Below, piece by piece: positions 3,608-64,000 of a DNA stretch of 64,000 bases. The stretch covers positions 19,822-83,821 of the forward strand of contig JBDRBE010000003.1 in the NCBI GenBank assembly GCA_043823085.1. The letters are read 5' to 3'. How positions within the stretch are numbered: position 1 is the stretch's first letter; each line of letters begins with the position of its first letter. The position numbers and the translations under genes are program-made. The notes beneath the pieces are model-generated. The model searched no databases, was not told the DNA's origin, and was given only the letters and a program-made list of their open reading frames with translations. Source of the stretch: Candidatus Levyibacteriota bacterium (GTDB lineage Bacteria > Patescibacteriota > Microgenomatia > Levybacterales > UBA12049).

Positions 3608-4020
3608 AAGTAATTTTTAATTTGAAATTTGAAATTTTAAATCAAATAGAAATGTTTAAAAATTTAAATTTTAAAAATTCATTGAAAATTTAAAATTGAA
3701 AATTTAGATTTTACAATATGTATGAGTTGCCGGATATAAGAAATATTGATGTAAAGGGTAAAACTGTTTTTTTGCGAGCTGATTTAGATGTTCCGCTTGC
3801 GCAACCATCAACCCGCCTGCCAAAGCCTGGCACTGGCGGGCAGGCCATCAATAGACAACAAACAACCATAGAGGATGATACGAGATTGCAAGCCGGTTTT
3901 CCAACGGTGCAATATCTATTGGAGCATGGTGCAAAAGTGATAATCGGTGGGCATTTGGATAGACCAAAGGGAAGAGACGAAAGCCATAGTTTACAGCCAG
4001 TAGCAGTTTGGTTGCATGAA

Positions 4021-4072
4021 AATATCAAATATCACCCGTTCGGCAAGCTCAGGGCAAATATCAAAAATACAT
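4021..4072. repeat. Short interspersed repeat, family C copy 1 (caaatatcacccgttcggcaagctcagggcaaatatcaaaaata), in-frame in pgk
   Basis: The core CCGTTCGGCAAGCTCAGGGCAA recurs at 4167-4189 (pgk, different reading frame) and 47258-47306 (DNA ligase, third frame). Confidence 0.7.
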
Positions 4073-4166
4073 ATAAAAAATTAAAAATTAATGACTTTGA
4101 TAGGTGGAAGATAAATGATAACCTTTTTCTTTTGGAGAATTTGAGGTTTTATGAGGGGGAGGAGAA

Positions 4167-4189
4167 CCCTTCGACAAGCTCAGGGCAAG
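4167..4189. repeat. Family C copy 2 (ccttcgacaagctcagggcaag), in-frame in pgk
   Basis: Same core as 4035-4056 but translated in another frame (PSTSSGQE versus PFGKLRAN). Confidence 0.65.
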
Positions 4190-4646
4190 AATTTGTTAAA
4201 AAACTTGCATCTCTGGCTGATATTTACGTCAACGACGCTTTTGCCATGTGCCATAGAGATCATGCTTCAATGACAGGAATTACTCATAATCTCCCTCATT
4301 TTGCCGGACTGCATTTGCAAAAAGAGGTTGAGGTTTTAGGTTCGGTTTTAAAAGATCCAAAACGGCCTTTGGTTGCAATTATCGGCGGGAAAAAAATTGA
4401 AACAAAACTTCCTTTGGTTTTAAAGATGTATAATTTGGCTGATTATATTTTGGTTGGCGGAAAAATCGCCCAGGAAAAAGCATCGCTTGGGACTATCTGT
4501 CAGAGGGAAACTCACAAATGCGCAAATCTTGTGGTTGCCCAATTAAATAAAGATGGTAGCGATATTACAACTGGAGATTTAGAAAAATTTTTAGAGGTAA
4601 TTGAAAAAGCAAAAACAGTAGTTTGGAACGGACCCATGGGAATCAT

Positions 4647-4660
4647 AAATGGCAAATGGC
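4647..4660. repeat. 7-bp tandem duplication (AAATGGC)x2 causing the pgk frameshift
   Basis: Seen directly in the sequence: ggaatcataAAATGGCAAATGGCaaattgatcgg. Confidence 0.8.
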
Positions 4661-4910
4661 AAATTGATCGGAGATGATACGGAAATGGGGACGAAGAGGA
4701 TCGCAGAGGCGATTGTTAAAAGCGGGGCATATAGTGTAGTTGGCGGAGGAGATACTACTGAATTTTTAAAACGGCTTGGGATTTTTGATAAATTTGACTT
4801 TGTTTCAACCGGCGGGGGAGCAATGCTCTCCTTTTTAAGCGGCGAAAAATTACCGGGTTTGGAAGCATTGGCCTCTTGAAGGATTTTTTTAGAGAGTATA
4901 TACTCTAAAT

Positions 4911-14544: not shown

Positions 14545-14548
14545 AACT

Positions 14549-14599
14549 AGCGTATAGCGTATAGCGTATAGCGTATAGCGTATAGCGTATAGCGTATAG
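14549..14599. repeat. tandem heptamer (GCGTATA)x7 immediately after the nrdJ stop
   Basis: Seen directly: tagcgtatagcgtatagcgtatagcgtatagcgtatagcgtatag. This unit is the reverse complement of the CTATACGC family found elsewhere in the window. Confidence 0.9.
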
Positions 14600-14644
14600 T
14601 TGTAGTTGTAATTAAAAATTAATTCAGTTAAAATGTTTGCGTGG

Positions 14645-15375: not shown

Positions 15376-15594
15376 CCGTTCGCCTTTTCAATTCTATTCG
15401 AATACGGCTCACGGAGCGCTTTAAGGCGGGTAAGGTTAAAAAAATTTTATTGAAAGTAAAAATTGGGTGAAATCGGTGTGATTCCGATGCTGTGCCGCAA
15501 CTGTTAAAGCCAGATCCCCATTATCCCGCCAAACGGGATAGATAAGTCTTCCGAGTAGAAGCAATATTTCTCCTCGGAAACGAGGAGTTTTTTT
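15376..15594 (+). promoter_or_regulatory. second cobalamin riboswitch, upstream of an unknown 387-aa protein
   Basis: GGGTGAAATCGGTGTGATTCCGATGCTGTGCCGCAACTGTTAAAGCCAGATCCCC is a very good match to the B12 element core (GGTGAAAxCC...GCcGCAACTGTaa...AGCCAGGATaCC). The terminator hairpin ctcctcggaaacgaggagttttttt ends 2 nt before the ATG. Confidence 0.65.
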
Positions 15595-16758
15595 ATGGGA
15601 AAAGAAGTGTTTTTTGATAGAATAACAGCCAAAAATGTTGGTTTTGATTTACCGCAAGAAGCAGTTAATGTGTCAAGGGCCTTGACAAAATTTCCTTTTT
15701 TAAGAAAAGAAATCATTAAAACTACCGCTCGTCAAATCAGGACTTACGAGTCAGAAACCCTTAAAGATAGTGTCGTGTCTTATTATCCATGTTTTCTGCA
15801 TTCTGTTGGAGGAAAAACGAAATTATTCTCTTCGGATATCCCTCATGAACAATTTTTAATGGAGTCTCAAATAGACTCGATTGAAAGAGATGGTGCGCCG
15901 TTAAATGGTTTTAGAAAATTGCAAGAAGAATTAGGCCGATTTAGCGGGAAAAGATTATTCTTATGGATTAGTCCAAAAGGAAGCGCTGGCAATAAGGGAA
16001 TTTATAAAAAAATTAATTATGGTTATCATCAAATTTATATTGGGACAGCTGAAGACAGAAAAACCCAAGCCTATGCCCTAAAGTCTGATATTGATGAAAG
16101 GGTACTAGCCAGTTGGATTAATCAAGTTTCGAATGGAAAGACTAGCATTAAGGGAGAGGATTCTCTGGAATTTCTCTTTAATCCGGTCGTAGTCCCTTTT
16201 TTTTCTTCGACATATTCTTCCGATGAAATGATAGCTTTCGCCCTGGTTAGATTAAAAAATATTTTGGCAAAAAGCAAGCAGTCGGCATTTTATAAAGATG
16301 TAGAAGTTGAAAACTTACCGGATTCAATGATAGATACAAAAATAGAACAAGAAAGAGATGTTGAAAGAATAGCTAGGGAACTTGATATTCAGCTCTCTAT
16401 GGATAAATGGTTAGGTTATGAAGAAGCTAGACGAGCAATTGGAGGGCAAATGTATGTTTTGTATGAAAGTTATGCTAATAAAAAGGGAGAATTTGAATTA
16501 AAAGGTTGTTCGGGAGGAACAAAAACCACCAAAAATCTTTTTGAGAATGAAATAGATTTATTAATTGAAAATATTTTTTCTACAGCATTCAGAATTAAAA
16601 ATTCTACAACGGATGAAGAATATAAGTTTGATAAAATTGATGATTGTGTAAAATGTGGAGCAAAGAATGTTGCCGTTGGTCCTTGTAAGATCTGCCAGCC
16701 ATGTGACAAAGCATTAAGAGCTAAAAGCGCCGCAAAATATTCCTTCTCCTTGAACTAA
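15595..16758 (+). CDS. hypothetical protein under B12-riboswitch control, with a C-terminal Cys-rich zinc-ribbon-like motif
   Basis: 387-aa ORF with no family I recognise. The C-terminus is CVKCGAKNVAVGPCKICQPCDKA. Confidence 0.55.
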   Translation: MGKEVFFDRITAKNVGFDLPQEAVNVSRALTKFPFLRKEIIKTTARQIRTYESETLKDSVVSYYPCFLHSVGGKTKLFSSDIPHEQFLMESQIDSIERDGAPLNGFRKLQEELGRFSGKRLFLWISPKGSAGNKGIYKKINYGYHQIYIGTAEDRKTQAYALKSDIDERVLASWINQVSNGKTSIKGEDSLEFLFNPVVVPFFSSTYSSDEMIAFALVRLKNILAKSKQSAFYKDVEVENLPDSMIDTKIEQERDVERIARELDIQLSMDKWLGYEEARRAIGGQMYVLYESYANKKGEFELKGCSGGTKTTKNLFENEIDLLIENIFSTAFRIKNSTTDEEYKFDKIDDCVKCGAKNVAVGPCKICQPCDKALRAKSAAKYSFSLN

Positions 16759-16818: not shown

Positions 16819-17304
16819 ATGGACGATTCGCAAAACTCAAAACTCAAAACTCAAAACTCAAATCAACAGGGTGGATTAGTAAATCAGACGGCGAACCAAA
16901 GTTTAGTATCAAATCCTTCAACCGTTACAGAGCCTGTTTCTCCTGTTAGTGTTCCTCAAAAAGAAATTGTGGAGCCGGTTTTAAATCAGCCAATAGCATC
17001 AGAAATTCAGGAGGAATGGGTAAAGCCGTCCCAAGCAGAGCCGGAGATTCAGCCAGAAGTAGAAGAAGCAGGTGTCGAAAAAGTTTCGGAGCTACCAAGA
17101 ATTACAGAAGAGCATAAACAAGTCGGCATAGAGCATGCCAAAGAGTCAACGCCCGTTCAAACAAAACCCTCGGGAACAATTCAATTACCAATGACCGAAA
17201 AAGAGGCGGATTCACAGATAAAATCAACAAAAAATACAGACTCGCCGCATTGGCTGGCAGTTTTAATTAAAAAAATATTTAAACGTTTAAAAGGGACAAA
17301 CTAA
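16819..17304 (+). CDS. hypothetical low-complexity (Q/N/S/P/E-rich) protein
   Basis: ORF starting MDDSQNSKLKTQNS... contains an in-frame (CAAAACT)n repeat (16831-16866) and is followed 1 nt later by the next gene. Confidence 0.4.
   Translation: MDDSQNSKLKTQNSNQQGGLVNQTANQSLVSNPSTVTEPVSPVSVPQKEIVEPVLNQPIASEIQEEWVKPSQAEPEIQPEVEEAGVEKVSELPRITEEHKQVGIEHAKESTPVQTKPSGTIQLPMTEKEADSQIKSTKNTDSPHWLAVLIKKIFKRLKGTN
16831..16866. repeat. tandem heptamer (CAAAACT)x~5 inside a coding region
   Basis: caaaactcaaaactcaaaactcaaaactcaaatc. Confidence 0.85.
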
Positions 17305-20968: not shown

Positions 20969-20984
20969 TTGAGCGTAGATATTT

Positions 20985-21056
20985 GCGTCCGTAGCTCAGT
21001 GGTAGAGCGCTACTCTTATAAAGTAGATGTCCTTGGTTCGAATCCAAGCGGACGCA
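20985..21056 (+). tRNA. tRNA-Ile, anticodon UAU
   Basis: Cloverleaf folded by hand: acceptor GCGTCCG/CGGACGC, D-arm GCTC..GAGC, anticodon stem CTACT/AGTAG with loop CTTATAA, and T-arm CTTGG-TTCGAAT-CCAAG. Confidence 0.7.
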
Positions 21057-21131
21057 CCCATTCGTCGCTTCGCTCCTCAGGGCAAGCTTGACTTTACAAA
21101 GGCCTTAATCTTTCGCTAAGATAGACGAAGC

Positions 21132-25399: not shown

Positions 25400-26752
25400 T
25401 TGATGAACAATCAATTCAAAAATAAAAAAATTGCCATTGTCGGGCTTGGAATAGAGGGTTTATCAAGCGCAAAGTTTTTTATTGAAAAGCGAGCAGAAGT
25501 TACAATTCTGGACAAAAAAGAAAAAACCGAATTAAACCTAGACACTCCGTTTGTTTTTGGTAAAAATTATCTGGATAATCTTGACTGTTTCGATGTCATT
25601 GTTAGAAGTCCGGGTGTTAAAGTTGATCTTCCAAATCTTCAAAAAGCAAAAGAAAAAGGAACGGTTATCACTTCTCAAATAAAACTTTTTTTTGATCTTT
25701 GTCCCTGCAAAATCATCGGCGTTACCGGAACAAAAGGAAAAGGAACGACCGCGTCGTTAATTTACGAAATGTTTAAAAAACAAACCAGAAATGCGTATTT
25801 GGGTGGTAATATAGGACTGCCTCCATTGGATTTTTTGGACAAATTAAATTCTCACTCAATTGTAGTTTTGGAACTCTCAAGTTTCCAACTCCAAGACCTT
25901 AAAAAGAGCCCTCATATTGCCGTAATTCTTATGACTTTAAGTGAACATCTTGATTATCATAAAGATGTTGAAGAATATGTCAGCGCAAAAAGAAATATTG
26001 TTAAATTTCAAAAGACTTCTGACTTTGCGATTTTAAATATTGATTATCCGGCAAGCCGCGAATCGGATATCCATACTCAGGGAAAAGTATTTTATATTAG
26101 TCGGGAAGGGGAGGTTGGTGAAGGATGTTTTGTGAAAAAAGGGGAAATAAAATTAAAAATTAAAAATGAGGAATTAAAAATTATTGATACTAAAGAAATT
26201 TTATTACCCGGGGAGCATAATTTTGAAAATGTTTGCGCGGCGGTTATGGCGGTTGCACTTTGTAATGTCTCGAAAGAGAATATCATTAAAGTCCTTAAAA
26301 CCTTTAAGGGCTTGGAGCATCGTTTGGAGCTTGTTGGAGAGGTTGGCGGCGTTAAATATTACGACGATTCGTTTTCGACCACTCCCGAAACTGCCATTGC
26401 CGCAATACTGGCTTTTAAAAATCCGGAGATTTTAATTTTGGGCGGGTCAAGTAAAAATTCAGATTTTAGCGAGTTAGGAAAAGTTATTAGTAATGCAAAA
26501 AATATCAAGGCGATTATTGGAATCGGTCTTGAATGGAAAAGAATTAAGTCAACTATACGCCATACGCTATACGCCATACGCTATATTGAAGGATTAAAGA
26601 ATATGCATTCAATTATTCAAAAAGCTTCAGAAATAGCGGAGGTGGGGGATATTGTTCTTCTGTCGCCGGCATGTGCCAGTTTTGATATGTTTAAGAACTA
26701 CAAGGACAGGGGAAGGCAGTTTAGAGAAGAAGTGGAGAACCTCAAGAAATAA
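25400..26752 (+). CDS. murD: UDP-N-acetylmuramoylalanine--D-glutamate ligase
   Basis: Rossmann N-terminus KIAIVGLGIEG and the Mur ligase P-loop IGVTGTKGKGTTASLIYEM. There is an in-frame CTATACGC-family repeat at 26548-26590. Confidence 0.9.
   Translation: MMNNQFKNKKIAIVGLGIEGLSSAKFFIEKRAEVTILDKKEKTELNLDTPFVFGKNYLDNLDCFDVIVRSPGVKVDLPNLQKAKEKGTVITSQIKLFFDLCPCKIIGVTGTKGKGTTASLIYEMFKKQTRNAYLGGNIGLPPLDFLDKLNSHSIVVLELSSFQLQDLKKSPHIAVILMTLSEHLDYHKDVEEYVSAKRNIVKFQKTSDFAILNIDYPASRESDIHTQGKVFYISREGEVGEGCFVKKGEIKLKIKNEELKIIDTKEILLPGEHNFENVCAAVMAVALCNVSKENIIKVLKTFKGLEHRLELVGEVGGVKYYDDSFSTTPETAIAAILAFKNPEILILGGSSKNSDFSELGKVISNAKNIKAIIGIGLEWKRIKSTIRHTLYAIRYIEGLKNMHSIIQKASEIAEVGDIVLLSPACASFDMFKNYKDRGRQFREEVENLKK
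26548..26590. repeat. CTATACGC/CCATACGC repeat inserted in-frame in murD
   Basis: aagtcaactatacgccatacgctatacgccatacgctatattg, encoding STIRHTLYAIRYI. Confidence 0.75.
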
Positions 26753-26790: not shown

Positions 26791-28083
26791 ATGAATAAAA
26801 TTTTTAAATTCAAAATAGTTAAATCGGAGGTTAAATCAAAGGTGAGAGCTGGAGAAATTATCACTTCCCATGGTGTTGTTCATACGCCGGCTTTTGTGGT
26901 AGTAGGTACACAAGCAACGGTAAAGTCCCTGATGCCGGAGGATTTAAAAAATATTGGCGTTGAAATTTTGTTTGGCAATACTTATCATTTGCATCTTCGG
27001 CCGGGGGAAGATGTTATCCAAGAACTTGGGGGATTGGGAAAATTTATGGGGTGGAGTGGGGCAACAATTACTGACAGTGGCGGGTTTCAAGTATTTTCGT
27101 TAAATCGCGGAAAAACGCTGAACAGAACGCAGAATAACACGGAAAATGATTTCGGCGCAGTTCCGCGTCCACCAGTTGGCGGAGTTCAGCGTGATTCAGC
27201 GCCTGTCTTGGTCAAAATTACCGACAATGGGGTGGAGTTTAGGTCGCATTTGGATGGTTCAAAACACATTTTTACTCCGGAAAAGTCAATTGAAATACAA
27301 CAAAAACTTGGTGCGGATATTATTTTGGCTTTTGATGAATGCGCGCCGCATCCTTCAACTTGCGAATACACAAAAAAGGCAATGGAAAGGACACACGAGT
27401 GGGCGGTCCGATGCCTAAAAGCGTTTAATCCACCGTCCGAGGAGTCGAGGTCGTTGCCTCGCCACCTCGGAGGTGGCCGAATGGACTCCTCCGAGGTGAA
27501 TTTGCAGGCCCTTTATGGCATTATTCATGGTGGGATTTACAAAGATCTACGAGAGGAATCGGCAAAATTTATCAGTAATCTTTCTTTTGATGGTATTGCA
27601 ATAGGCGGAGTAGCTGTTGGGGAGAGCAAAAAAGAAATGCGGGATGTTTTAAATTGGGTTTATCCTTTTTTACCCGAAGATAAGCCTCGGCATTTGCTTG
27701 GAATTGGAGAAGTTGATGATATTTTTGACGCGGTCGATAAAGGAATGGATACATTTGATTGCGTTATTCCAACCAGATTCGGGCGTTACGGGATTGTTTT
27801 TGTGCCAAAGCCGGAGGGAAATATAAAAAATCATTTTCGGATTGACCTTAATAAATCAATTTATGCCAGAGACAAAGGCCCAATCAGTAAAGATTGCAAA
27901 TGCTATACTTGCCAAAATTTCACCCGTGGTTATCTTAACCATCTTTTCCGCGCGCAAGAATTACTCGGCTATCGCCTTGCAACCTATCATAATCTTTATT
28001 TTATCGTCGATCTTGTTAAACAAATCCGAGAGTCAATTCTGGAGGGGAGATTTGAGAAATTAAAAAAAAAGTGGCTGGGCTAA
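26791..28083 (+). CDS. tgt: queuine tRNA-ribosyltransferase
   Basis: HTPAFVVVGTQATVK, the Asp-rich active site, LLGIGEVDDIFDAVDKGMDTFDCVIPTR and the zinc site CxCxxC...H are present. There is a ~70-bp palindromic in-frame insert at 27431-27500. Confidence 0.9.
   Translation: MNKIFKFKIVKSEVKSKVRAGEIITSHGVVHTPAFVVVGTQATVKSLMPEDLKNIGVEILFGNTYHLHLRPGEDVIQELGGLGKFMGWSGATITDSGGFQVFSLNRGKTLNRTQNNTENDFGAVPRPPVGGVQRDSAPVLVKITDNGVEFRSHLDGSKHIFTPEKSIEIQQKLGADIILAFDECAPHPSTCEYTKKAMERTHEWAVRCLKAFNPPSEESRSLPRHLGGGRMDSSEVNLQALYGIIHGGIYKDLREESAKFISNLSFDGIAIGGVAVGESKKEMRDVLNWVYPFLPEDKPRHLLGIGEVDDIFDAVDKGMDTFDCVIPTRFGRYGIVFVPKPEGNIKNHFRIDLNKSIYARDKGPISKDCKCYTCQNFTRGYLNHLFRAQELLGYRLATYHNLYFIVDLVKQIRESILEGRFEKLKKKWLG
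27431..27500. repeat. palindromic GC-rich element inserted in-frame in tgt
   Basis: ccgaggagtcgaggtcgttgcctcgccacctcggaggtggccgaatggactcctccgagg. The outer arms and the central CCACCTCGGAGGTGG are reverse complements. It encodes SEESRSLPRHLGGGRMDSSE. Confidence 0.7.
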
Positions 28084-36744: not shown

Positions 36745-37701
36745 ATGAAACGTTTTGTTCTCATTGATGGCCATGCGATACTTCATCGGGCTTTTCATGC
36801 ATTGCCTCCGCTGACTTCTGCAAAGGGAGAAACGGTAAATGCGGTCTACGGATTTTTTGCCATGCTTCTTAAAATTTTAGAAGACGTAAAGCCGGAATAT
36901 TTAGCTATTTGTTTTGACAGGCCAAAACCAACTTTTCGTCAAGAACTTTACGTTGGTTATCAGGCCCATCGGCCAAAAATGGACAGCGATTTAGTTCCTC
37001 AAATTGTCCTTCTTCATAAAGTTTTGGAAAGGATAAAAATTCCAATTTTTGAGGTGGATGGATATGAGGCAGACGATGTGATCGGCACTTTGGCCGATCG
37101 AATTCAAAAATCAAAAATCAAAAATCAAAAATTGCAAACGATAATTGTTTCAGGAGATAGAGACATGTTGCAACTTGTAAATTCTCATGTTCTGGTGCTT
37201 GCGCCAATTACAGGCATTACAAAAATGATTTTATTTGACCAAGAAAAAGTGGAGGAAAAATACGGACTTAAACCTTCTCAAATTATTGATTACAAGGCGT
37301 TGATAGGAGACCCTTCAGATAATTATCCGGGAGTTTTGGGGGTTGGACCAAAAACCGCGGCAGAACTTCTTTTAAAATATGAAACACTTGAGAATTTATA
37401 TCAAAATTTAGATTCAGTAGAAAATAAAAAACTGGTGGAAAAGCTGGCCAAAGAAGCGGAAGCCGCAGGAATGGCCAAAAAATTAGCTACCATTATCACT
37501 GACGCGCCGATAACGTTGAGTATTGAAAAATGTTTAGTTTCAAAAGTTGACTTAGAAGAAACAAAAAAGGCCTTTGAAGAGCTGGGGTTTAAGAGTTTGT
37601 TAAAAAGACTAGGACAGAATTCTAGTGATTCAGTGGCTAAGGAAGAACAGAAGCCTAAGGAAACACAAAATAAGGACAATGGTCAGTTAGGACTTTTATG
37701 A
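36745..37701 (+). CDS. stand-alone 5'-3' exonuclease / flap endonuclease (Pol I N-terminal-domain family)
   Basis: MKRFVLIDGHAILHRAF ... GYEADDVIGTLA ... H3TH motif GDPSDNYPGVLGVGPKTA. No polymerase domain follows. There is an in-frame (TCAAAAA)x3 at 37105-37132. Confidence 0.85.
   Translation: MKRFVLIDGHAILHRAFHALPPLTSAKGETVNAVYGFFAMLLKILEDVKPEYLAICFDRPKPTFRQELYVGYQAHRPKMDSDLVPQIVLLHKVLERIKIPIFEVDGYEADDVIGTLADRIQKSKIKNQKLQTIIVSGDRDMLQLVNSHVLVLAPITGITKMILFDQEKVEEKYGLKPSQIIDYKALIGDPSDNYPGVLGVGPKTAAELLLKYETLENLYQNLDSVENKKLVEKLAKEAEAAGMAKKLATIITDAPITLSIEKCLVSKVDLEETKKAFEELGFKSLLKRLGQNSSDSVAKEEQKPKETQNKDNGQLGLL
37105..37132. repeat. tandem heptamer (TCAAAAA) in-frame in the exonuclease gene
   Basis: caaaaatcaaaaatcaaaaatcaaaaatt, encoding KSKIKNQK. 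Confidence 0.85.
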
Positions 37702-39376: not shown

Positions 39377-40641
39377 AAGTTGCGTTGGTGCATGATTATA
39401 TTAAAGAATATGGAGGCGCCGAAAGAGTGCTTGAGGCGTTGCATGAGATTTGGCCGGAGGCGCCCATTTTTACTTCGGTTTATCTGCCTGAATTTTTAGG
39501 ACCGCACAGGGAAAGGTTTAACGGATGGAAAATTAAAACTTCAATTCTTCAAAGTTTACCATTGAAAGCAAAATTAATAAGCCCTTTTCGAATTATCGCG
39601 CCGCTAATCTTTCGGTCATTTGATTTCAGCGATTATGATGTAGTAATTGTTTCTGCAACCGGAGCATATACACCGAACATGATACAACTCAAAACCACAA
39701 CTCAAAGCTCAAAAATAACTGACCATACGCCATGCGCCATACGCCATGCGCCAGTTCATGTTTGCTATTGTCATACGCCGCCAAGATATCTTTATGGATT
39801 TGCTACGGCAAGGGATTGGAAAAAGAATATTATTTTTAGGGTTTTGGGGGAAATTGCCAATGCATTTTTGCGGCAAATTGATTTTAAATCGGCGCAAAAC
39901 GTTGATTATTTTATCGCCAACTCAAAAAACGTGGCGGGAAGAATTAAAAAGTTCTATAAAAGAGATTCGACAGTTATTTATCCCCCCGTAGTTGGCGCTG
40001 AGGTCGGACATACAAATTTTTTTGTTCCGCAGTTGTCTCACGAAGAATCTCAAGGTGTTCATCAGCGCATTGGCGCTCGACAAGATGCGAACAGAAAAAA
40101 TTTGATATCCTCCCCGCGCCAATACTTTTTAGCCGGAGGAAGATTGGCAAGGCCAAAACACATTGATTTGATTGTTCAAGCCTGCGCTGAACTAAACCTT
40201 CCTCTGAAAATTTTTGGGAAGGGATTCGCGGGATACGATCAACAATTAAAAAATCAAAAATCAAAAATCAAAAATATAACTCAAAAGTCAAAAGTTGAAT
40301 TTTTGGGAGAAGTGAGCGACCAGGAGAAGTTGGAGTTGATGAAAAATGCCAAGGCTTACATTTTTGCCTCGGAAGATGAGGATTTTGGTATCACACCGGT
40401 TGAAGCAATGAGTGTTGGTACGCCGGTTGTTGCTTACCGTTCGGGAGGCGTTGTTGAATCGGTTGTTGATGGAAAAACAGGAATATTTTTTGATAAACTA
40501 TCAATAGAGTCTTTGGCGGAGGCAATAAGGCGCTTAAGCAGTTTAGGGGACTTAAGTGAAAATTGCCGCAATCAGGCCAAAAAATTTAGTAAAGAAAGAT
40601 TTAAAAAAGAAATCGTAGAATTTATTAAATCAAAAATTTAA
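39373..40641 (+). CDS. family GT4 glycosyltransferase carrying three in-frame repeat insertions
   Basis: N-terminus VALVHDYIKEYGGAERV and C-terminal EDFGITPVEAMSVGTPVVAYRSGGVVESV (E-x7-E region). Inserts lie at 39685-39755, 39998-40121 and 40248-40276. Confidence 0.8.
   Translation: MKVALVHDYIKEYGGAERVLEALHEIWPEAPIFTSVYLPEFLGPHRERFNGWKIKTSILQSLPLKAKLISPFRIIAPLIFRSFDFSDYDVVIVSATGAYTPNMIQLKTTTQSSKITDHTPCAIRHAPVHVCYCHTPPRYLYGFATARDWKKNIIFRVLGEIANAFLRQIDFKSAQNVDYFIANSKNVAGRIKKFYKRDSTVIYPPVVGAEVGHTNFFVPQLSHEESQGVHQRIGARQDANRKNLISSPRQYFLAGGRLARPKHIDLIVQACAELNLPLKIFGKGFAGYDQQLKNQKSKIKNITQKSKVEFLGEVSDQEKLELMKNAKAYIFASEDEDFGITPVEAMSVGTPVVAYRSGGVVESVVDGKTGIFFDKLSIESLAEAIRRLSSLGDLSENCRNQAKKFSKERFKKEIVEFIKSKI
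39685..39755. repeat. AT-rich plus CCATACGC/CCATGCGC repeat insertion in-frame in the GT4 gene
   Basis: caactcaaaaccacaactcaaagctcaaaaataactgaccatacgccatgcgccatacgccatgcgcc. Confidence 0.7.
39998..40121. repeat. ~125-bp RPE-like element with terminal inverted repeats (family B copy 1), inserted in-frame inside the GT4 CDS
   Basis: aggtcggacatacaaatttttttgttccgcag...gatgcgaacagaaaaaatttgatatcctccccgcgcca. It is about 85% identical to 50285-50409 (intergenic). The termini CAAATTTTTTTGTTCCGCAG and CTGCGAACAGAAAAAATTTG are reverse complements. Confidence 0.8.
40248..40276. repeat. (TCAAAAA)x4 tandem repeat in-frame in the GT4 gene
   Basis: aaaaatcaaaaatcaaaaatcaaaaatat. Confidence 0.85.
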
Positions 40642-43537: not shown

Positions 43538-44417
43538 CCAAAGCCAGTTAAAGAAACTTTATCGACCTCAAAAGAATTCTCATAAGGGGCAAAATGGGAA
43601 GTTGATGATTATCGGCGGGTCGCATCTTTTTCATGGTGCGTCTTTGTGGGCGCTAAAAGTTGCTTCAAGAATTGTAGACATGGTTTTTTATTCATCAACA
43701 GCGGAAAATAATCAACTCACGCAGGAATTAAAAAGCAAACTTTATGATTTTATGGCAATTTCAAGAGATAAAATTGACGATTATATTAAAGAGGCGGATG
43801 TTGTTCTTTTGGGCTCGGGATTGCCAAGGGAAGAGGGAAGAGAAGAGAGAGAAGAATCGACAAGAGAACTCACGCAAAGATTATTAAGCTCGTATCCCGA
43901 TAAAAAATGGGTGATTGATGCAGGTTCTTTAACCGAGATGGAGCCGGAATGGCTATTACCATTAAAGGGAAACGTGATAGTTACTCCACATAAAGGAGAG
44001 TTTGAAACTCTTTTTAAACTCAAAAGTCAAAAGTCAAATCTCAAAACCACAACTCAAAACTCAAAAATTACGGAAGAAATTGTTCAGCAAATGGCCGGAA
44101 AATATAACTGTGTGATTCTTTTAAAGGGCGCAACAGATATTATTTGTTCGCCCTTCGACTCCGCTCAGGGTGAAATTCGTTGCGTCCGAATTTCAGGTGG
44201 AAATGTAGGGATGACCAAAGGGGGAACAGGAGATGTTCTAGCAGGTTTAGTTGCGGCGCTTTCTTGCAAAAACGATTTGTTTTTAGCGGCATCGGCTGGT
44301 TCATTTATCAACAAAAAAGCCGGAGAAAGTCTTTATGAGAAGGTTGGACCTTATTTTAACGCTTCAGATTTGGCAGACGAAATTCCCGCAGTAATGAATC
44401 ATTTAATCAATAAATAA
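43524..44417 (+). CDS. YjeF C-terminal-domain carbohydrate-kinase-like protein (NAD(P)H-hydrate dehydratase family)
   Basis: GQNGKLMIIGGSHLFHGASLWA ... GGTGDVLAGLVAALS. It carries in-frame repeat insertions at 43810-43870 (GA-rich), 44020-44075 (AT-rich) and 44150-44200 (family D). Confidence 0.7.
   Translation: MEKFDQSQLKKLYRPQKNSHKGQNGKLMIIGGSHLFHGASLWALKVASRIVDMVFYSSTAENNQLTQELKSKLYDFMAISRDKIDDYIKEADVVLLGSGLPREEGREEREESTRELTQRLLSSYPDKKWVIDAGSLTEMEPEWLLPLKGNVIVTPHKGEFETLFKLKSQKSNLKTTTQNSKITEEIVQQMAGKYNCVILLKGATDIICSPFDSAQGEIRCVRISGGNVGMTKGGTGDVLAGLVAALSCKNDLFLAASAGSFINKKAGESLYEKVGPYFNASDLADEIPAVMNHLINK
44150..44200. repeat. family D element (ccttcgactccgctcaggg + hairpin gaaattcg...cgaatttc), in-frame in the YjeF-like gene
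   Basis: The core TTCGACTCCGCTCAGGG is shared with 59866-59925 (inside trxB) and related to family C (GCTCAGGGCAA). Confidence 0.65.
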
Positions 44418-46964: not shown

Positions 46965-48710
46965 ATGCTTTTTGCAGTACTCTCCAAATATTTTGAAAAA
47001 TTAGAATCTACTTCGTCGCGACTTGCTTTGATTGATATTCTCTCGGAGCTTTTTAAAGAATCAGAGAAAGACGAAATTGAAGAAATTGTTTATTTAACTC
47101 AAGGAAGGGTTGCTCCATTTTTTGAAGCGACGGAAATTGGCATGGCCGAAAAAACCGTTGCCGATTCAATTGCAAGAGCGTATGGATTATCGAAAGCAGA
47201 GGTTTTAAAGTCGTATCAAAAATTAGGAGATATGGGGAGCGTCGCTACGATCTTAAGTTCAAAAATCACCCGTTCGGCAAGCTCAGTGCAAAAATCAAAA
47301 ATATCTGTTTCCCAAGTTTTTGATGTTTTGACGCAAATTGCCAAGACCTCGGGAGAGGGAACGGTAGAAAAGAGACTTGTTCTTTTATCAGAGCTTCTTA
47401 AAAAACTTGATCCTGTTTCGGTTAAACATTTAGCGCGTATTCCTTTGGGAAATATGCGGCTTGGGATTGGTGACCCGACGATTTTGGACGCGCTTGCCAA
47501 AGCAAAGCTTGGCGATAAAAGCAAAAGAAAACTTTTAGAAGGGGCTTACAACAGAACTTCGGATCTTGGATTAATTGCCAAAACTCTTTGGAGCGACGGG
47601 CTTTCAAGCGTTGAAAAACTAAAAGTTGCGGTTGGAAAACCAATTCGGGCCGAGCTTGCCGAAAGATTGCCAAGTCCCGAAAAAGTAATTGAGAAAATGA
47701 AAACAGTCGACGTACAGTATAAATACGATGGTTTTCGCGTTCAAATTCACAAAAATAAAAACGAGGTTTCGATGTATTCAAGAAATCTTGAGAATATGAC
47801 TCATATGTTTCCCGAACTTATAAAAGGAGCGAAAGAACAGGTTAAACCCCAAACAGTTATTTTGGATTGCGAGGCGCTGGCTTACAATCCCCTTTCGGAA
47901 GAATTTTTGCCGTTTCAGGAAACAACCAAACGAAGAAGAAAACACGGTATTGAGGAGATGGCAAAAAAACTGCCTCTTAAAGCTTTTGTTTTTGACATCC
48001 TTTATAAGGATGGAAAGTCCTTGATTGACGAGCCGTTGACTAGTCGACTGAAAATTCTCAAAGAGACTATCAGGGATAATGGGGTTTTAATTGTCACCAA
48101 AAATCAAACTGTCTCCGATGCAAAAACTTTAACTTTACTTTTGGAAGACGCAATTTCCAAAGGTCTGGAGGGAGTGGTTGTTAAAAGATTGGACAGTAAA
48201 TATGAGGCGGGGGCAAGAAATTTTAATTGGGTAAAACTCAAAAGAAATTCCTCCGGCGAACTTAACGACACAATTGATTGTGTGATTTTGGGTTACATCA
48301 GCGGAAAAGGTAAAAGAACCGCTTTTGGAGCAGGGGCTTTGCTTGTTGGAATTTATGACGACAAAAAAGATGAGTTTGTAACTGTTTCCAAAATCGGAAC
48401 AGGACTTACAGATGAAGAATGGAAAGAAATAAAAATTCAAGGTGCAAAATTCAAAGTGCAAGATAAACCGCCGAGAGTAAATTCATTAATAACACCAAGT
48501 GTTTGGGTAGCGCCAAAAATTGTCATTGAAGTTTTGGCAGATGAAATAACTCGTAGTCCTGTTCATACCGCAGGGAAAAGCGCTGATGAACCCGGTTACG
48601 CTCTTCGATTTCCCCGTCTTGTTTCATTTCGAGGAAAAGATAAGCGGGCAGAAGACGCCACGACGGTTAAAGAATTAATTCAGATGTACAAACAACAAGG
48701 GAAAAAATAA
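46965..48710 (+). CDS. ATP-dependent DNA ligase (archaeal/eukaryotic-type)
   Basis: Adenylation motif I KYDGFRVQIH, motifs III-V and the OB domain (EGVVVKRLDSKYEAG...). A family C repeat lies in-frame at 47258-47306. Confidence 0.85.
   Translation: MLFAVLSKYFEKLESTSSRLALIDILSELFKESEKDEIEEIVYLTQGRVAPFFEATEIGMAEKTVADSIARAYGLSKAEVLKSYQKLGDMGSVATILSSKITRSASSVQKSKISVSQVFDVLTQIAKTSGEGTVEKRLVLLSELLKKLDPVSVKHLARIPLGNMRLGIGDPTILDALAKAKLGDKSKRKLLEGAYNRTSDLGLIAKTLWSDGLSSVEKLKVAVGKPIRAELAERLPSPEKVIEKMKTVDVQYKYDGFRVQIHKNKNEVSMYSRNLENMTHMFPELIKGAKEQVKPQTVILDCEALAYNPLSEEFLPFQETTKRRRKHGIEEMAKKLPLKAFVFDILYKDGKSLIDEPLTSRLKILKETIRDNGVLIVTKNQTVSDAKTLTLLLEDAISKGLEGVVVKRLDSKYEAGARNFNWVKLKRNSSGELNDTIDCVILGYISGKGKRTAFGAGALLVGIYDDKKDEFVTVSKIGTGLTDEEWKEIKIQGAKFKVQDKPPRVNSLITPSVWVAPKIVIEVLADEITRSPVHTAGKSADEPGYALRFPRLVSFRGKDKRAEDATTVKELIQMYKQQGKK
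47258..47306. repeat. family C copy 3 (ttcaaaaatcacccgttcggcaagctcagtgcaaaaatcaaaaatatc), in-frame in the ligase gene
   Basis: The same core as the pgk copies but read in a third frame (TRSASSVQKS). Confidence 0.7.
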
Positions 48711-48875: not shown

Positions 48876-50267
48876 ATGCAACTAGTGGCAGATTTACATG
48901 TACATAGTAAATACTCACGCGCGGTATCACCGGACATGGTTTTGCCAATCATGGCAAAATGGGCAGTTAAAAAAGGAATTGATATTTTGGCAACTGCCGA
49001 CTGGACACATCCTCTTTGGTTTAGGGAAATAAAAGCTAACCTAGAAGAATCCAGTATTGGACTCTTCAAGCTCAAATCTTCCTCCTACTCTAAAGCTTCG
49101 GAGGACAAGCAAAACAAAACTCATTTTATTCTCTCCACTGAAATTTCGAGCATTTACTCGCAGGGTGGGCAAGTGCGGAGAGTTCATAATTTAATTTTAT
49201 CGCCGGGCTTTGAAACTTGCGAAAAAATCAATCAGGAATTGGTTAAACGCGGGTGTAATCTTTCCTCCGACGGACGGCCGATTGTTGGAATTTCTTCAAA
49301 AAATCTTTTGGAAATGGTTTTATCAATTGACAAAAACGCCTTATTTATTCCTTGCCATGTTTGGACGCCGTGGTTTTCTTTGTATGGTTCAAAATCAGGC
49401 TTTGATTCTATAGAAGAATGTTTTGGTGAGTATGTAAATAAAATTTATGCCGTTGAGACAGGACTTTCAAGCGACCCCCAAATGAACTGGCGGATAAAAG
49501 AATTGGAAAACCGTTCAATTGTTTCCTCGTCTGATTCCCATTCGCCGGCAAAGATGGGGAGGGAAGCGACCATATTCACAGTTCAAAATTCAAAATTCAA
49601 AAATCAAAATGACAGTTCAAAATTCAAAATTACATATGATGATTTAGTAGCTGCTATAAAAAGAGATCCCGAAGGTAATTTAAAGATTGGTTATACTATT
49701 GAGTTCTATCCGGAGGAGGGGAAATACCATTATACGGGGCATAGAAATTGTAAAGTTGTACAGAGTCCGGAGGAAACAAATAAGAATGGAGAGATTTGTC
49801 CGGTTTGCAAAAAACCCCTGACAGTGGGAGTGATGCACCGTGTTGAACAACTTGCTCAACAACAATCAATAAACAACTATCGACAATCAACAGATAAATT
49901 TGGAGTTACTTGGGTTGAAGATTCCAGAGGTATTCATCCGCCGTTTGTAAAATTGGTGCCTTTAAATGAAATAATTGCCGAGAGTTTAGCATCGACCGTG
50001 TCTAGCGTCAAAGTAAAAAGCGTTTTTGATCAAATGTGTGGTGAATTCGGTTCGGAAATAAAAATTCTTTTGACAACTCCAATTCAAGATTTGGAAAAAG
50101 CCCAAGGGCCAAAAATTGCCGAGGGAGTTGCCAAAGTCAGGAAGAGTGATATTGTGATTGAACCCGGATTTGATGGAGAATATGGGAAGGTAAAGATATG
50201 GGGAGAAAAAAAGTCAGCAGAGAATAGAAATGGGGAGAAAGAAGAGGCGCAGTTGGGATTATTTTAA
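48876..50267 (+). CDS. PHP-domain nuclease, endonuclease Q-like (TIGR00375 family)
   Basis: N-terminal DLHVHSKYSRAVS PHP motif, further His/Asp metal ligands (PCHVWTPWFS, SSDSHSP), an internal CxxC zinc finger (ICPVCKKPLTVGVMHRVEQLA) and C-terminal PGFDGEYGKVKI. The architecture matches archaeal EndoQ. An in-frame AT-rich tandem repeat lies at 49580-49632. Confidence 0.55.
   Translation: MQLVADLHVHSKYSRAVSPDMVLPIMAKWAVKKGIDILATADWTHPLWFREIKANLEESSIGLFKLKSSSYSKASEDKQNKTHFILSTEISSIYSQGGQVRRVHNLILSPGFETCEKINQELVKRGCNLSSDGRPIVGISSKNLLEMVLSIDKNALFIPCHVWTPWFSLYGSKSGFDSIEECFGEYVNKIYAVETGLSSDPQMNWRIKELENRSIVSSSDSHSPAKMGREATIFTVQNSKFKNQNDSSKFKITYDDLVAAIKRDPEGNLKIGYTIEFYPEEGKYHYTGHRNCKVVQSPEETNKNGEICPVCKKPLTVGVMHRVEQLAQQQSINNYRQSTDKFGVTWVEDSRGIHPPFVKLVPLNEIIAESLASTVSSVKVKSVFDQMCGEFGSEIKILLTTPIQDLEKAQGPKIAEGVAKVRKSDIVIEPGFDGEYGKVKIWGEKKSAENRNGEKEEAQLGLF
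49580..49632. repeat. AT-rich tandem repeat (TTCAAAA) in-frame in the EndoQ-like gene
   Basis: cagttcaaaattcaaaattcaaaaatcaaaatgacagttcaaaattcaaaatt. Confidence 0.85.
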
Positions 50268-53604: not shown

Positions 53605-53898
53605 ATGAAGAGAGCGAGGATTTTGATTTCTGGTTTTGTGCAGGGAGTCGGATATCGCCATTTTGTTAGGAAAAACGCCCTTGAACTTGGTTTAACCGGC
53701 TGGATTAGGAATTTGCCTGGGACTGGAGTTGAAGCAGTCTTTGAGTCTTTGGCAAGCTCAGACCAAGTGGCAAAAGAAAAGATAGAAGATATGATTTCCC
53801 TCTGCAGAAAAGGTCCATTTATGTCGGAAGTGAAAAATATGGAAGTCAAGTGGGAGGAAGGAACAGACGAATTCAATGATTTTGAGATTGTGATGTGA
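53605..53898 (+). CDS. acyP: acylphosphatase
   Basis: ISGFVQGVGYRHFV ... GWIRNLPGTGVEAVFE (acylphosphatase signatures). Confidence 0.8.
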   Translation: MKRARILISGFVQGVGYRHFVRKNALELGLTGWIRNLPGTGVEAVFESLASSDQVAKEKIEDMISLCRKGPFMSEVKNMEVKWEEGTDEFNDFEIVM

Positions 53899-59226: not shown

Positions 59227-59553
59227 ATGGCAGAAGTAATTATTACCGATCAAAATTTCGAATCAGAAGTTATTAAATCTGACATGCCGGTTCTTGTGGA
59301 TTTTTGGGCGCCGTGGTGCGGGCCATGCCGGATTGTCGGTCCGATTATCGAAGAATTGGCAAAAGAATATGAGGGAAAAGTTAAAATCGGAAAATTAAAT
59401 GTTGACGAAAATTCCGATACTGCGACAAAATATGCGGTGATGAGTATTCCGACTCTTCTTATCTTCAAAAAAGGAAGTCCTTTTAAAACCATGGTCGGCG
59501 CTCTGGCAAAAGAAAATATTAAAAAGGAAATCGATTCAGTAATTAGCGTATAG
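59227..59553 (+). CDS. trxA: thioredoxin
   Basis: Active site WAPWCGPCR. Confidence 0.92.
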
Positions 59554-59620
59554 GGTATAGGGGATAGCGTATAGTTTCCGTTTTAACTATATGCTATACG
59601 CCATTTGCTATACGCTGTTT
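59551..59620. repeat. long hairpin built from GCGTATAG/CTATACGC units between trxA and trxB
   Basis: gcgtatagggtataggggatagcgtatag...ctatatgctatacgccatttgctatacgc. The arms are reverse complements. It may act as a terminator or attenuator. Confidence 0.65.
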
Positions 59621-59625
59621 TTATT

Positions 59626-60567
59626 ATGTATGATGTCATAATTATTGGAAGCGGTCCAGCGGGACTCACTGCTGCAATTTATACCACCCGGGCAAATCTT
59701 AAAACTTTAATTATTGCCGGAAGCCGTTGGGGCGGGCAGTTAATGTTAACTGCTTTAGTTGAAAATTTTCCGGGATTTCCGCAGGGAATTAATGGTCAGG
59801 ATTTAATGGCGGCGATGCGAAAACAGGCCGAGCATTTTGGCGCGGAAATTATAGAAACCGATTTTACCCGCCTTCGCCCCTTCGACTCCGCTCAGGGCTT
59901 CGGCGGGCAAGGCAAAAGTGGCGGATTATTTAAAGTCACAGCCGGCGGGAAAGATTATCAGAGTAAATCAATAATCATTGCAACAGGTGCCGACACAAAA
60001 TGGCTGGGAGTTCGTGGTGAAAAAGAATTAATCGGCCGCGGTGTTTCGACCTGCGCTCCCTGCGACGCGCCGTTTTTTAAAAACAAAAATGTCATTGTGG
60101 TTGGAGGAGGCGATAGTGCCATGGAAGAGGCGCTGGTTTTAAGCGGTTTTGCCAATTCGGTCACTATTGTTCATAGGCGCAATTTGTTCCGTGCAAGCAA
60201 GATAATGATTGGAAAAGTAAAAGAGAATAAAAAAATAAAATTTCTTTTTGACTCAAAAATTGTGGAAGTTTTGGGGAAGGGAAGAGTAAGTGGCGTAAAA
60301 ATTGAAAATGTTAAAACAGGAAAAGTTTCCAAAATGCCGATTGACGGAGTTTTTGTTGCCATTGGTCATATGCCCAATTCATCAGTTTTTAAAAATATTA
60401 ATAAAGACAAAAATGGATATATCAAAGCTTATGAAAATACAAAAACAAATATCGAAGGCGTTTTTGTCGCCGGCGATGTTTATGATCGGCGGTATAAACA
60501 GGCAATCACCGCCGCAGGTTTTGGCTGCCAGGCCGCATTAGATGTAGAAAGATGGTTACGCGGTTGA
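59626..60567 (+). CDS. trxB: thioredoxin-disulfide reductase
   Basis: FAD motif IIIGSGPAGLTAA, redox CAPCDAPFF, and NADPH motif VVGGGDSAMEEA. It contains an in-frame family D insert (59866-59925). Confidence 0.9.
   Translation: MYDVIIIGSGPAGLTAAIYTTRANLKTLIIAGSRWGGQLMLTALVENFPGFPQGINGQDLMAAMRKQAEHFGAEIIETDFTRLRPFDSAQGFGGQGKSGGLFKVTAGGKDYQSKSIIIATGADTKWLGVRGEKELIGRGVSTCAPCDAPFFKNKNVIVVGGGDSAMEEALVLSGFANSVTIVHRRNLFRASKIMIGKVKENKKIKFLFDSKIVEVLGKGRVSGVKIENVKTGKVSKMPIDGVFVAIGHMPNSSVFKNINKDKNGYIKAYENTKTNIEGVFVAGDVYDRRYKQAITAAGFGCQAALDVERWLRG
59866..59925. repeat. family D element in-frame in trxB
   Basis: cccgccttcgccccttcgactccgctcagggcttcggcgggcaaggcaaaagtggcgg, encoding RLRPFDSAQGFGGQGKSGG. 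Confidence 0.65.
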
Positions 60568-61485: not shown

Positions 61486-61496
61486 CATGAATTATG

Positions 61497-61598
61497 GGCA
61501 AAGATAACGGGATCAACGAACTTGTAACTGCTCGCTAAGGCTTGCAGACAATTTCGGGACATCGCGAAGGTCGAGAGTTCGAATCTCTTCCGGTCCAC
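61497..61598 (+). other. tRNA-like element (clean T-arm GAGAG-TTCGAAT-CTCTT plus acceptor-like CCGGTCC-A-CCCA) with no canonical 5' half
   Basis: No complementary 5' acceptor strand (GG[AG][CT][CT]GG) and no D or anticodon arm were found by hand in the preceding 100 nt. Confidence 0.25.
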
Positions 61599-62014
61599 CC
61601 ATTCGACTCTCCGCCAGTTGGCGGATCGCTCAGGGCAAGCAGGATTTTCGTTGATTAGTGCCTAGCGCTGTCTCAATGACGAGACCGCTAGACACTAGTC
61701 AATTAAGACTAGATGGGATTCCGCCTAGCGGCGGAATCTTTGACCCCGCTAGAAACTTACTTGCTCGCAAGGTTTACATCCTTGCCTCGCAAGAGCGTTT
61801 CTATAAGGGTCTGCGTCGCCCGCCACAAATTTGGGTGGGTGTTAAAAATGTACGTCTGAATTAAAACAGAAGTTTTAAATTTATTGAAACTTTTCTGTAA
61901 AGAAATTTGGGCGGGCTCCTTGAAAAGTGAAGAGAAACAAGCCCCATAGAATCTTTCTTCTCGACACGTCAAACGTGCCTCGAAGAGCGATTTGACGGGG
62001 CAAGCGTCTTTAAG

Positions 62015-64000
<1,986 letters not shown>

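Follow-up and report, generated by a model that had tools for sequence, protein, structure and literature searches.

A 22- to 24-nt repeat carried in frame by housekeeping genes of a Levybacteria genome and found in many phyla: a putative ultra-small mobile element

A short GC-rich string occurs twice in pgk and once in an ATP-dependent DNA ligase gene of the window examined here (the whole stretch of 64,000 nt), which belongs to a metagenome-assembled genome of Candidatus Levyibacteriota (Microgenomates, CPR). This raises the question of whether it is a protein motif or a unit of DNA that entered these genes, and how such a unit could be accommodated within coding sequence. The original prediction described a ~45-bp DNA-level repeat inserted in three reading frames. 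The unit proved to be smaller, namely, a 22-nt element lying in phase inside arrays of tandem heptamers; the 45-nt identity (93%) of copies 1 and 3 (family D20) consists of this element plus flanking heptamer units. The core of 22-24 nt can be written as CCC-TTCGRC-(spacer of 2-4 nt or a nested hairpin)-GCTCAGGGCA-RGC. The 22-mer CCGTTCGGCAAGCTCAGGGCAA matched the window at 4036-4057 (0 mismatches), 4167-4188 (two mismatches) and 47270-47291 (one mismatch), with 0 matches in 100 dinucleotide shuffles of the window, the GC content of which is 37.7%. A two-box search, CC(N)TTCGNC...CTCAGGG, gave further copies from 44151, 59878, 21058 and 61599, corresponding to the related copies expected in the YjeF-like gene, in trxB, after tRNA-Ile and after a tRNA-like element. 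A decayed copy in an acylphosphatase gene, which had been missed, was recovered by a profile search and orthologue alignment. The window thus holds eight copies of one element, all on the + strand, of which six are coding and in frame in five genes (pgk twice, the YjeF-like gene, the ATP-dependent ligase, acylphosphatase and trxB) and two are non-coding, each beginning directly 3' of a tRNA-type 3' end.

Copy 1 (CCCGTTCGGCAAGCTCAGGGCA, residues HPFGKLRA) occupies 4035-4056 of pgk within a tract of heptamer repeats (4020-4091, + strand) that begins with (AAATATC)x2.1 at 4020-4034, continues 3' of the copy with TCAAAAA and following units, and ends with (AAAAATT)x2.3 at 4076-4091. Copy 2 (CCCTTCGACAAGCTCAGGGCAAG, NPSTSSGQE; 4167-4189) lies just 5' of a helix in the same gene. 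Copy 3 (CCCGTTCGGCAAGCTCAGTGCA, TRSASSVQ), in the ATP-dependent DNA ligase, is at 47269-47290 and not at 47262-47283 as first reported. The YjeF-like (Carb_kinase) gene carries CCCTTCGACTCCGCTCAGGGTG at 44151-44172, with the spacer TCC and the translation SPFDSAQGE, and the decayed acylphosphatase copy, (GAG)TCTTTGGCAAGCTCAGACCAAG at 53743-53767, forms a 7-aa insertion, ESLASSD. In trxB, the insert at 59866-59915 (RLRPFDSAQGFGGQGKSGG) is a GC-rich composite, with the core element CCCCTTCGACTCCGCTCAGGGC at 59877-59898 nested between the arms ACCCGCC and GGCGGGCAAGGC. A minus-strand 12-mer at 47652-47663 was rejected as a further copy and regarded as a chance match because it belongs to a conserved part of the ligase gene.

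The six coding copies all keep the frame and are stop-free, as had been claimed, and they are in sense orientation. The sense strand of the element lacks stop codons in all three frames, and the antisense strand has TGA in one frame. The use of three frames held for the right-hand box only. Codon phases 1 and 3 were observed for the TTCG box, and for the CTCAG box all three, namely, 1 (copy 1), 3 (copies 2 and 3) and 2 (YjeF-like gene and trxB); the right box appears in all three phases because the spacer in the latter two genes is one base longer. Copy 1 does have a separate frame, but PSTSSGQ (copy 2) and RSASSVQ (copy 3) represent one frame that differs by base substitutions only, and the 22-mer is therefore read in two frames. 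The full third frame (IRQAQDK) was found only in the ligase orthologue L213. Several frames are used both within the window and among ligase orthologues.

Depending on the phase, the element would give rise to a short loop of hydrophilic residues, PFGKLRA, PSTSSGQ or RQAQGK. In the AlphaFold model of the N-terminal part of PGK, residues 106-114 are coil with a pLDDT below 50, which at copy 1 concerns residues 109-114, and residues 151-157 are located at a coil/helix N-cap; we infer that the hosts of the coding copies are surface loops. That the string turns up in genes with no relation to each other, in more than one codon phase and also outside coding sequence supports the original view that it is a DNA-level element rather than a protein motif. 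This view is also backed by the coding copies being insertions and by the presence of an identical, sharp-edged string in many phyla.

The original prediction included neither the heptamer-array context nor the occurrence of the element in other genomes. Copy 1 splits an array unit in phase (TCAAATA TCA/CCCGTTCGGCAAGCTCAGGGCA/AATA TCAAAAA), as does the ligase copy (TCAAAAA TCA/CCCGTTCGGCAAGCTCAGTGCA/AAAA TCAAAAA). Such in-phase, duplication-free insertion within heptamer units was observed twice in the window, in the loci L212, L213 and L214, and in one Chloroflexaceae genome, where the copy interrupts a (GACGAGT)n array. A target-site preference, namely for heptamer arrays at TCA^AAA, was evident, and target-site duplication was not seen, the arrays running in phase across the insert. 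Period-7 arrays adjoin three of 118 cross-phylum matches and arrays of period 4-6 or 8-12 adjoin none, and a Nostoc match (L063) has TTCTGAC on both flanks.

For each of the six coding copies, comparison with orthologues revealed sites that contain the element (filled) and sites that do not (empty). The ligase loop reads SKFKIQNSK in 65 of 120 orthologues, and element-like inserts occur in ~25 of the 120, in all three frames (e.g., NPSASLRAR, IRQAQDK and IHSASSGQ). The empty site in L211 is TCAAAAA TCAAAGC TCAAAAA TCAAAAA, relative to which the window has 22 additional nucleotides and one heptamer fewer (+22-7 = +15 nt). At the same TCA^AAA point, the ligase genes of L213 and L214 carry TCCATTCGACAAGCTCAGGACA and TCCATTCTGCAAGCTCAGGACA, respectively, and that of L212 has a 24-nt variant inside an AGTTCAA array. 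The window ligase copy is identical to the L213 and L214 ligase copies at 19 of 24 positions and to copy 1 at 23 of 24. Copies in one genome are thus more alike than copies at one site in different genomes, a contrast that indicates that copying or conversion took place recently inside this genome. The YjeF-like gene is filled in the window and in L212 (CCCTTCGACTCTGCTCAGGGCG) and empty in L211, the trxB insert is present in the window and absent from L211 and L213, and ESLASSD was found in the window only and was absent from four orthologues. One ligase orthologue, P0139 (981 aa), additionally contains intein and LAGLIDADG domains (PF14890 and PF14528).

These length changes suggest how a gene might tolerate the element. 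A copy in a gene would survive only where the result stays readable, and a 22-nt insert would cause a +1 frameshift (22 = 1 mod 3), which the loss of one 7-nt unit (7 = 1 mod 3) from a slippage-prone array could cancel. The ligase fits this arithmetic exactly. Heptamer arrays may thus be safe landing sites in genes, because 7-nt slippage can correct a +1 frameshift. A variable (AAATGGC)n array in pgk (two copies in the window and at least four in a Logan assembly) also fits the slippage idea. This gene falls into two frames (3718-4677 and 4649-4879), split by the tandem 7-bp repeat at 4647-4664, which has 2.6 units in the window and at least four at the start of an independent Logan contig (L001, 1-40). 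One or four copies keep the frame and two do not; the split is probably a collapse of the repeat in the assembly or real copy-number variation and not the sign of a dead gene.

The two pgk sites differ in their history. Among the PGKs of alignment A1, site 1 (copy 1) is filled in the window only, and relatives have uninterrupted arrays, (GTTCAAA)x4 in L202 and (GTTCAGA)x5 in L206, which are translated in three frames (SKFKVQSS). Site 2 (copy 2) is filled in 15 of 120 Levybacteria orthologues, its empty state being EEKNDPEF, as in the solved PGK 1PHP. Occupancy is scattered across the tree at this site, as it is in the ligase loop, and at site 2 it requires a minimum of 10 gains or losses in a neighbour-joining tree that has no support values. 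A filled and an empty PGK (P0044 and P0065) can be 83% identical, and filled pairs are only 50-55% identical (e.g., ~50% for P0078 and P0001). The DNA at site 2 is nevertheless almost constant (window, AACCCTTCGACAAGCTCAGGGCAAG; L206, AACCCTTCGACCGCCTCAGGGCAAG; L204, AACCCATCATCTAGCTCAGGGCAAG): the GC-rich string is kept in orthologues with ~50% amino acid identity, and the flanking codons differ at synonymous sites. The copy in L202 has the same ends and is interrupted by a hairpin element, TCCGCCAG...CTGGCGGA, with an element-like loop of its own. Between the filled L206 and the empty L215 (76% amino acid identity), the 9 nt GATCCGGAA are swapped for 24 nt. This change, a replacement rather than a simple insertion, recurs in distant lineages, and allele exchange therefore fits better than repeated independent transposition at site 2. 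A metagenome scan for PGK loci yielded, among the matches listed, mostly distant PGKs with ~33% identity.

The two non-coding copies, both on the + strand, are located at the ends of tRNA-type genes. One (CCCATTCGTCGCTTCGCTCCTCAGGGCAAGC, 21057-21087) starts from the base after the discriminator of tRNA-Ile(TAT). The other (CCCATTCGAC-TCTCCGCCAGTTGGCGGATC-GCTCAGGGCAAGC, 61598-61640) lies in the tRNA-Ala/23S spacer, where it begins directly after the discriminator of a tRNA-like 3' half and has a small hairpin nested between its two boxes. The fetched loci contain 41 other tRNAs, none of which has a copy next to it. The tRNA-Ile gene itself (anticodon TAT, i.e., UAU; 20984-21060) encodes CCCA, not CCA, after the discriminator. 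The tRNA-like 3' half (61487-61601; T-arm GAGAGTTCGAATCTCTT, acceptor strand CCGGTCC and discriminator A) sits between tRNA-Ala and the 23S gene without a matching 5' half and received no ARAGORN call. Its assignment as a tmRNA 3' end was rejected, the Rfam resemblance (E = 9.5) not being significant. At L211 (20958-20990), a tRNA-Ala is directly followed by a (TTGGTCG)n heptamer array.

Outside the Levybacteria, the 18-mer TTCGRCAAGCTCAGGGCA, queried against 596 Gb of species-representative genomes, had at least 120 matching DNA stretches in many phyla, including, among the matches listed, Acidobacteriota, Chloroflexota, several CPR classes, Proteobacteria and Planctomycetota. They include Nostoc sp. 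CHAB 5844 and Sphingomonas natans, which are not labelled as MAGs, as well as chromosome-level MAG assemblies. The match count alone proves little, since ~35 chance matches are estimated in 596 Gb. The unqueried flanks are more telling: in 118 independent loci, the upstream CCC is conserved at 98/96/85% and the downstream GGC(TCT) at 64/86/79%, and beyond them nothing is conserved, which delimits a sharp-edged unit of 24-27 nt. The 18-mer was also present in 59 IMG/VR viral contigs, where CCC precedes 41 of 62 matches and AGC or GGC follows 39 of 62; five of the viral matches, within one homologous gene, are probably chance matches.

The contexts in other groups resemble those in the window. 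In other CPR classes, all 10 copies that fall within long ORFs have the sense orientation and are read as PSTSSGQ, HSTSSGQ or LRQAQGK; one host ORF, judged by eye, looks like a GyrB fragment. In Acidobacteria, the sequence around six matches is that which characterises the second hairpin of Acido-Lenti-1, an Rfam motif, and the loop of the one locus aligned to the model (L095) has 28 nt versus 3 nt in the consensus, providing a filled/empty contrast in another phylum. Acido-Lenti-1 as the element's own family was rejected, the motif only hosting it. Enrichment in hairpin loops was modest (14% vs. 3.6% of copies between inverted repeats of at least 7 bp). Tandem 24-nt arrays of the element were found in L042, L076 and L116, and nested insertions in the PGK of L202, at 61598-61640, in the trxB insert and in the Acido-Lenti-1 loop.

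These results probably reflect a family of ultra-small, non-autonomous, non-palindromic dispersed mobile repeats. Mobility is read from the distribution only, since neither an enzyme that moves the element nor a donor copy or transposition intermediate came to light. The element has no stable fold beyond a CCC/GGG closure of 3-4 bp, and fold z-scores of approximately -1.35 to +1.4 (+1.40 for the bare 27-nt consensus) were not significant. It has no terminal inverted repeats, the CCC and GGC ends forming none of useful length. Rfam searches of the window and 18 element-bearing loci at gathering thresholds, and of two regions at E-value thresholds, returned no family corresponding to the element, and Pfam scans of six translated frames gave no meaningful match. 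When the 3,047 ORFs of 120 loci were clustered all against all, no recurrent neighbour family emerged; the largest cluster of neighbouring proteins covered six of the 120 loci, within a scope of ~4 kb on each side that leaves room for a distant RAYT. In a full-text search of the available literature, no paper contained the nucleotide string or any of twelve peptide translations. To our knowledge, the element bears no likeness to sigma-54 promoters, dif, parS, 5S rRNA, RNase P RNA or SRP RNA.

In form, the best match is with the small dispersed repeats (SDRs) of cyanobacteria, likened here by description and not by sequence. Elhai and colleagues reportedly described SDR1-8 in 2008 as dispersed, non-coding repeats of ~21-27 nt that insert precisely into short host motifs. 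The SDRs are also said to lie often in tandem heptamer repeats, to be nested, to be confined to one cyanobacterial subgroup and to have been ascribed to an RNA intermediate. The present element shares with them the size of ~21-27 nt, dispersal with sharp edges, precise insertion into short host motifs, a lack of coding capacity, a proposed RNA intermediate, nesting and heptamer arrays, the last in window copies 1 and 3 and in L212, L213, L214, L006, L036 and L105. Unlike the SDRs, it occurs in CPR, many phyla and viral contigs, resides routinely in protein-coding genes where it is read in frame, and is without a detectable stable shared secondary structure of the kind that compensatory changes support in SDR4-6. 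Small dispersed repeats of heterocyst-forming cyanobacteria are cited in PMC3116915, PMC2884548 and PMC4390886.

In its effect on proteins, the element is best matched, by analogy, with the Rickettsia palindromic elements (RPEs), selfish in-frame repeats that add fold-compatible peptide segments to unrelated housekeeping genes (PMC10969869). The six copies in five genes recall this behaviour. RPEs, however, are ~100-150 bp long, palindromic, read as one conserved peptide in one frame and limited to Rickettsia (PMC10969869), whereas the present element is 22-24 nt long, non-palindromic, read in several frames and spread across phyla. REP/REPIN sequences are abundant, non-autonomous repeats of 20-40 nt that leave no target-site duplication and are presumably moved in trans by RAYT via ssDNA (PMC3116915; PMC3733652). 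They resemble the element in being short, non-autonomous and free of duplication, but are imperfect palindromes, extragenic, species-specific in sequence and RAYT-linked (PMC3116915; PMC3733652). The element, in contrast, is unfolded, lies inside genes, keeps one sequence across phyla and has no linked gene within ~4 kb. Classification as a MITE was rejected in view of the missing terminal inverted repeats and duplication and the replacement of 9 nt at PGK site 2. The defining features of REP/REPIN, MITE and RPE thus fail because the element lacks a fold, inverted repeats, a duplication and a linked gene. Like the GC clusters and byp elements of yeast mitochondria, the copies are short GC-rich inserts inside protein-coding genes of an AT-rich genome. 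Lang and colleagues reportedly described in 2014 that byp elements are skipped by the ribosome and have matching take-off and landing codons and an in-frame stop. The copies described here are open in frame and have no stop, and ordinary translation is therefore simpler than a byp-type bypass. What sets the element apart from the known systems is its near-fixed sequence across phyla and viral contigs, its routine in-frame residence in CPR housekeeping genes and its lack of structure.

If the element is mobile, it could spread in trans, moved by an enzyme whose substrate is a single-stranded intermediate of RNA or DNA, with selection keeping only stop-free copies located in loops. Exchange from lineage to lineage, perhaps with phages as vectors, would account for a sequence that hardly varies between phyla. 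An RNA intermediate is favoured by the sense-only orientation and by the tRNA 3'-end and RNA-loop contexts, while replication-linked ssDNA is still conceivable because most genes in the window point one way. The orientation bias could also stem from selection (the antisense TGA) or from co-orientation of genes and replication rather than from the mechanism. It is also difficult to see why a selfish 24-mer should vary so little from phylum to phylum unless it has a function or is recognised by a universal factor.

Another explanation is that the string is a functional nucleic-acid signal under selection (for protein or RNA binding, RNA processing or DNA uptake), with dispersal secondary and the gene copies useful. 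It would account for a near-invariant sequence with information confined to 24-27 nt, for the right-hand box CTCAGGGCAAG being kept in PGK orthologues that are ~50% identical, and for all copies lying on the transcribed strand. The two copies abutting the 3' processing site of tRNA-type genes and the position in an RNA-motif loop in Acidobacteria could be understood in the same way. Nevertheless, we consider a signal unlikely. The density is low (about one copy per 8-20 kb), copies arise by whole-unit insertion and not by point mutation, the hosts are functionally unrelated (glycolysis, ligase, thioredoxin reductase and acylphosphatase), and decayed copies exist (L204 and window 53743-53767). 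The 41 tRNAs without an adjacent copy and the absence of a stable fold or Rfam family also argue against it. An uptake signal in particular would be species-specific and frequent on both strands; a DNA uptake sequence was rejected given eight copies per 64 kb on one strand, the cross-phylum occurrence and whole-unit insertions. A Chi-like signal is likewise argued against by the low density, one-strand bias and origin by insertion.

An explanation that we judge to be improbable is a single ancient entry into each gene, with the patchiness produced by homologous recombination (allele exchange or gene conversion) among lineages and paralogous copies. The same 9-nt-to-24-nt replacement at PGK site 2 in distant lineages and the nearly identical YjeF copies of the window and L212 are in line with this history, and the 23/24 identity of the window 22-mers in copy 1 and the ligase is consistent with conversion. 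Recombination, however, leaves unexplained the same 24-mer in unrelated genes, in differing heptamer arrays, in RNA-motif loops of Acidobacteria and in viral contigs, and the differences in the flanking codons would restrict conversion tracts to only ~24 nt.

The hydrophilic, loop-like peptides in poorly modelled regions, the metagenomic origin of the contigs and the evidently mis-assembled or variable neighbouring pgk repeat might suggest that the repeats are protein linkers of low complexity that arose by convergence, or an artefact of assembly or chimera formation. This idea is essentially refuted by the identical nucleotide string in different codon phases and non-coding DNA, the exact reproduction of the ligase copy by two independent assemblies, the orthologous copies in many independent assemblies and the matches in Nostoc sp. 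CHAB 5844, S. natans and chromosome-level MAGs. The two assemblies were those of the sequencing runs SRR27458547 and SRR27458548 in Logan, in which the ligase protein, including the insert, was identical to that in the window. Around pgk, the contigs in Logan are interrupted by A/T-rich and heptamer repeats on either side of the gene, and the comparison covered the ligase copy alone.

Returning to a mobile repeat, a bolder form is possible, although we hold it with considerable doubt: the 24-nt CCCTTCGACAAGCTCAGGGCAGGC may be a pan-bacterial, phage-borne mobile element, the smallest and most widespread known, which a conserved or transferred factor recognises on single-stranded nucleic acid and which colonises the heptamer loops of essential CPR proteins as a general generator of loop insertions. 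If the element is indeed a mobile repeat, mobile DNA can be as small as ~24 nt, phyla with hardly anything else in common would have one sequence that is active in them or at least retained, and an unknown recognising machinery would be worth finding. Some of the numerous short insertions that distinguish lineages in otherwise conserved CPR proteins would then also be explained and be linked to the abundant heptanucleotide arrays translated in three frames. In practice, both the elements and the arrays interrupt assemblies, give rise to apparent frameshifts (pgk is an example) and swell 'hypothetical protein' families with translated-repeat peptides; they could be used as markers of recent genetic exchange.

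The heptamer arrays are a conspicuous feature of the window in their own right. A period of 7 was assigned to approximately 37 of 92 Tandem Repeats Finder rows and a period of 14 to further rows (examples of period 7: 14548-14599, 16831-16862, 37104-37132, 40249-40293, 44016-66 and 49574-49631). The unit sequences vary widely. Of 36 heptamer arrays, 22 lie inside ORFs of at least 100 aa and yield three-frame peptides such as FKIQNSK and QKSKIKN, and translated arrays likewise occur in orthologues across Levybacteria. Among the papers listed by a literature search on CPR/Patescibacteria, none mentions STRR or heptanucleotide repeats. In the 5' part of the 23S rRNA gene, (GACAGAA)x6 at 62324-62367 and (TTCTGTT)x4.7 at 62392-62424 are roughly complementary and may form an expansion hairpin built of heptamer repeats. 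Arrays of (TAGCGTA)n occur in both orientations at 14548-14599, 26553-26585, 59544-59574 and 62769-62799, with up to 94% complementarity (14567-14602 vs. 26550-26585), the unit being common to distant loci.

Other GC-rich inserts were also noted. A second one in pgk (3811-3850, ACCCGCCTGCCAAAGCCTGGCACTGGCGGGCAGGCCATCA) has a low pLDDT and falls within a segment of ~19 residues that is missing from the solved PGK 1PHP. The ends of this insert (ACCCGCC...GGCGGGCAGGC) agree with the outer arms of the composite in trxB, and on this sequence likeness a second micro-element family, comprising this insert and the trxB arms, may be present. The ORF at 26791-28083 (+) contains GC-rich hairpin-like islands at 27430-27481 and 27152-27184, of which one has CCATTCGGC on the minus strand and the other has TCCACCAGTTGGCGGA, with one mismatch to the hairpin nested in the copy at 61598-61640. 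Finally, an AdoCbl-II (cobalamin) riboswitch aptamer was detected at 15452-15525, upstream of the ORF at 15595-16758, with a score of 37.0 bits against a gathering threshold of 36.5 bits.
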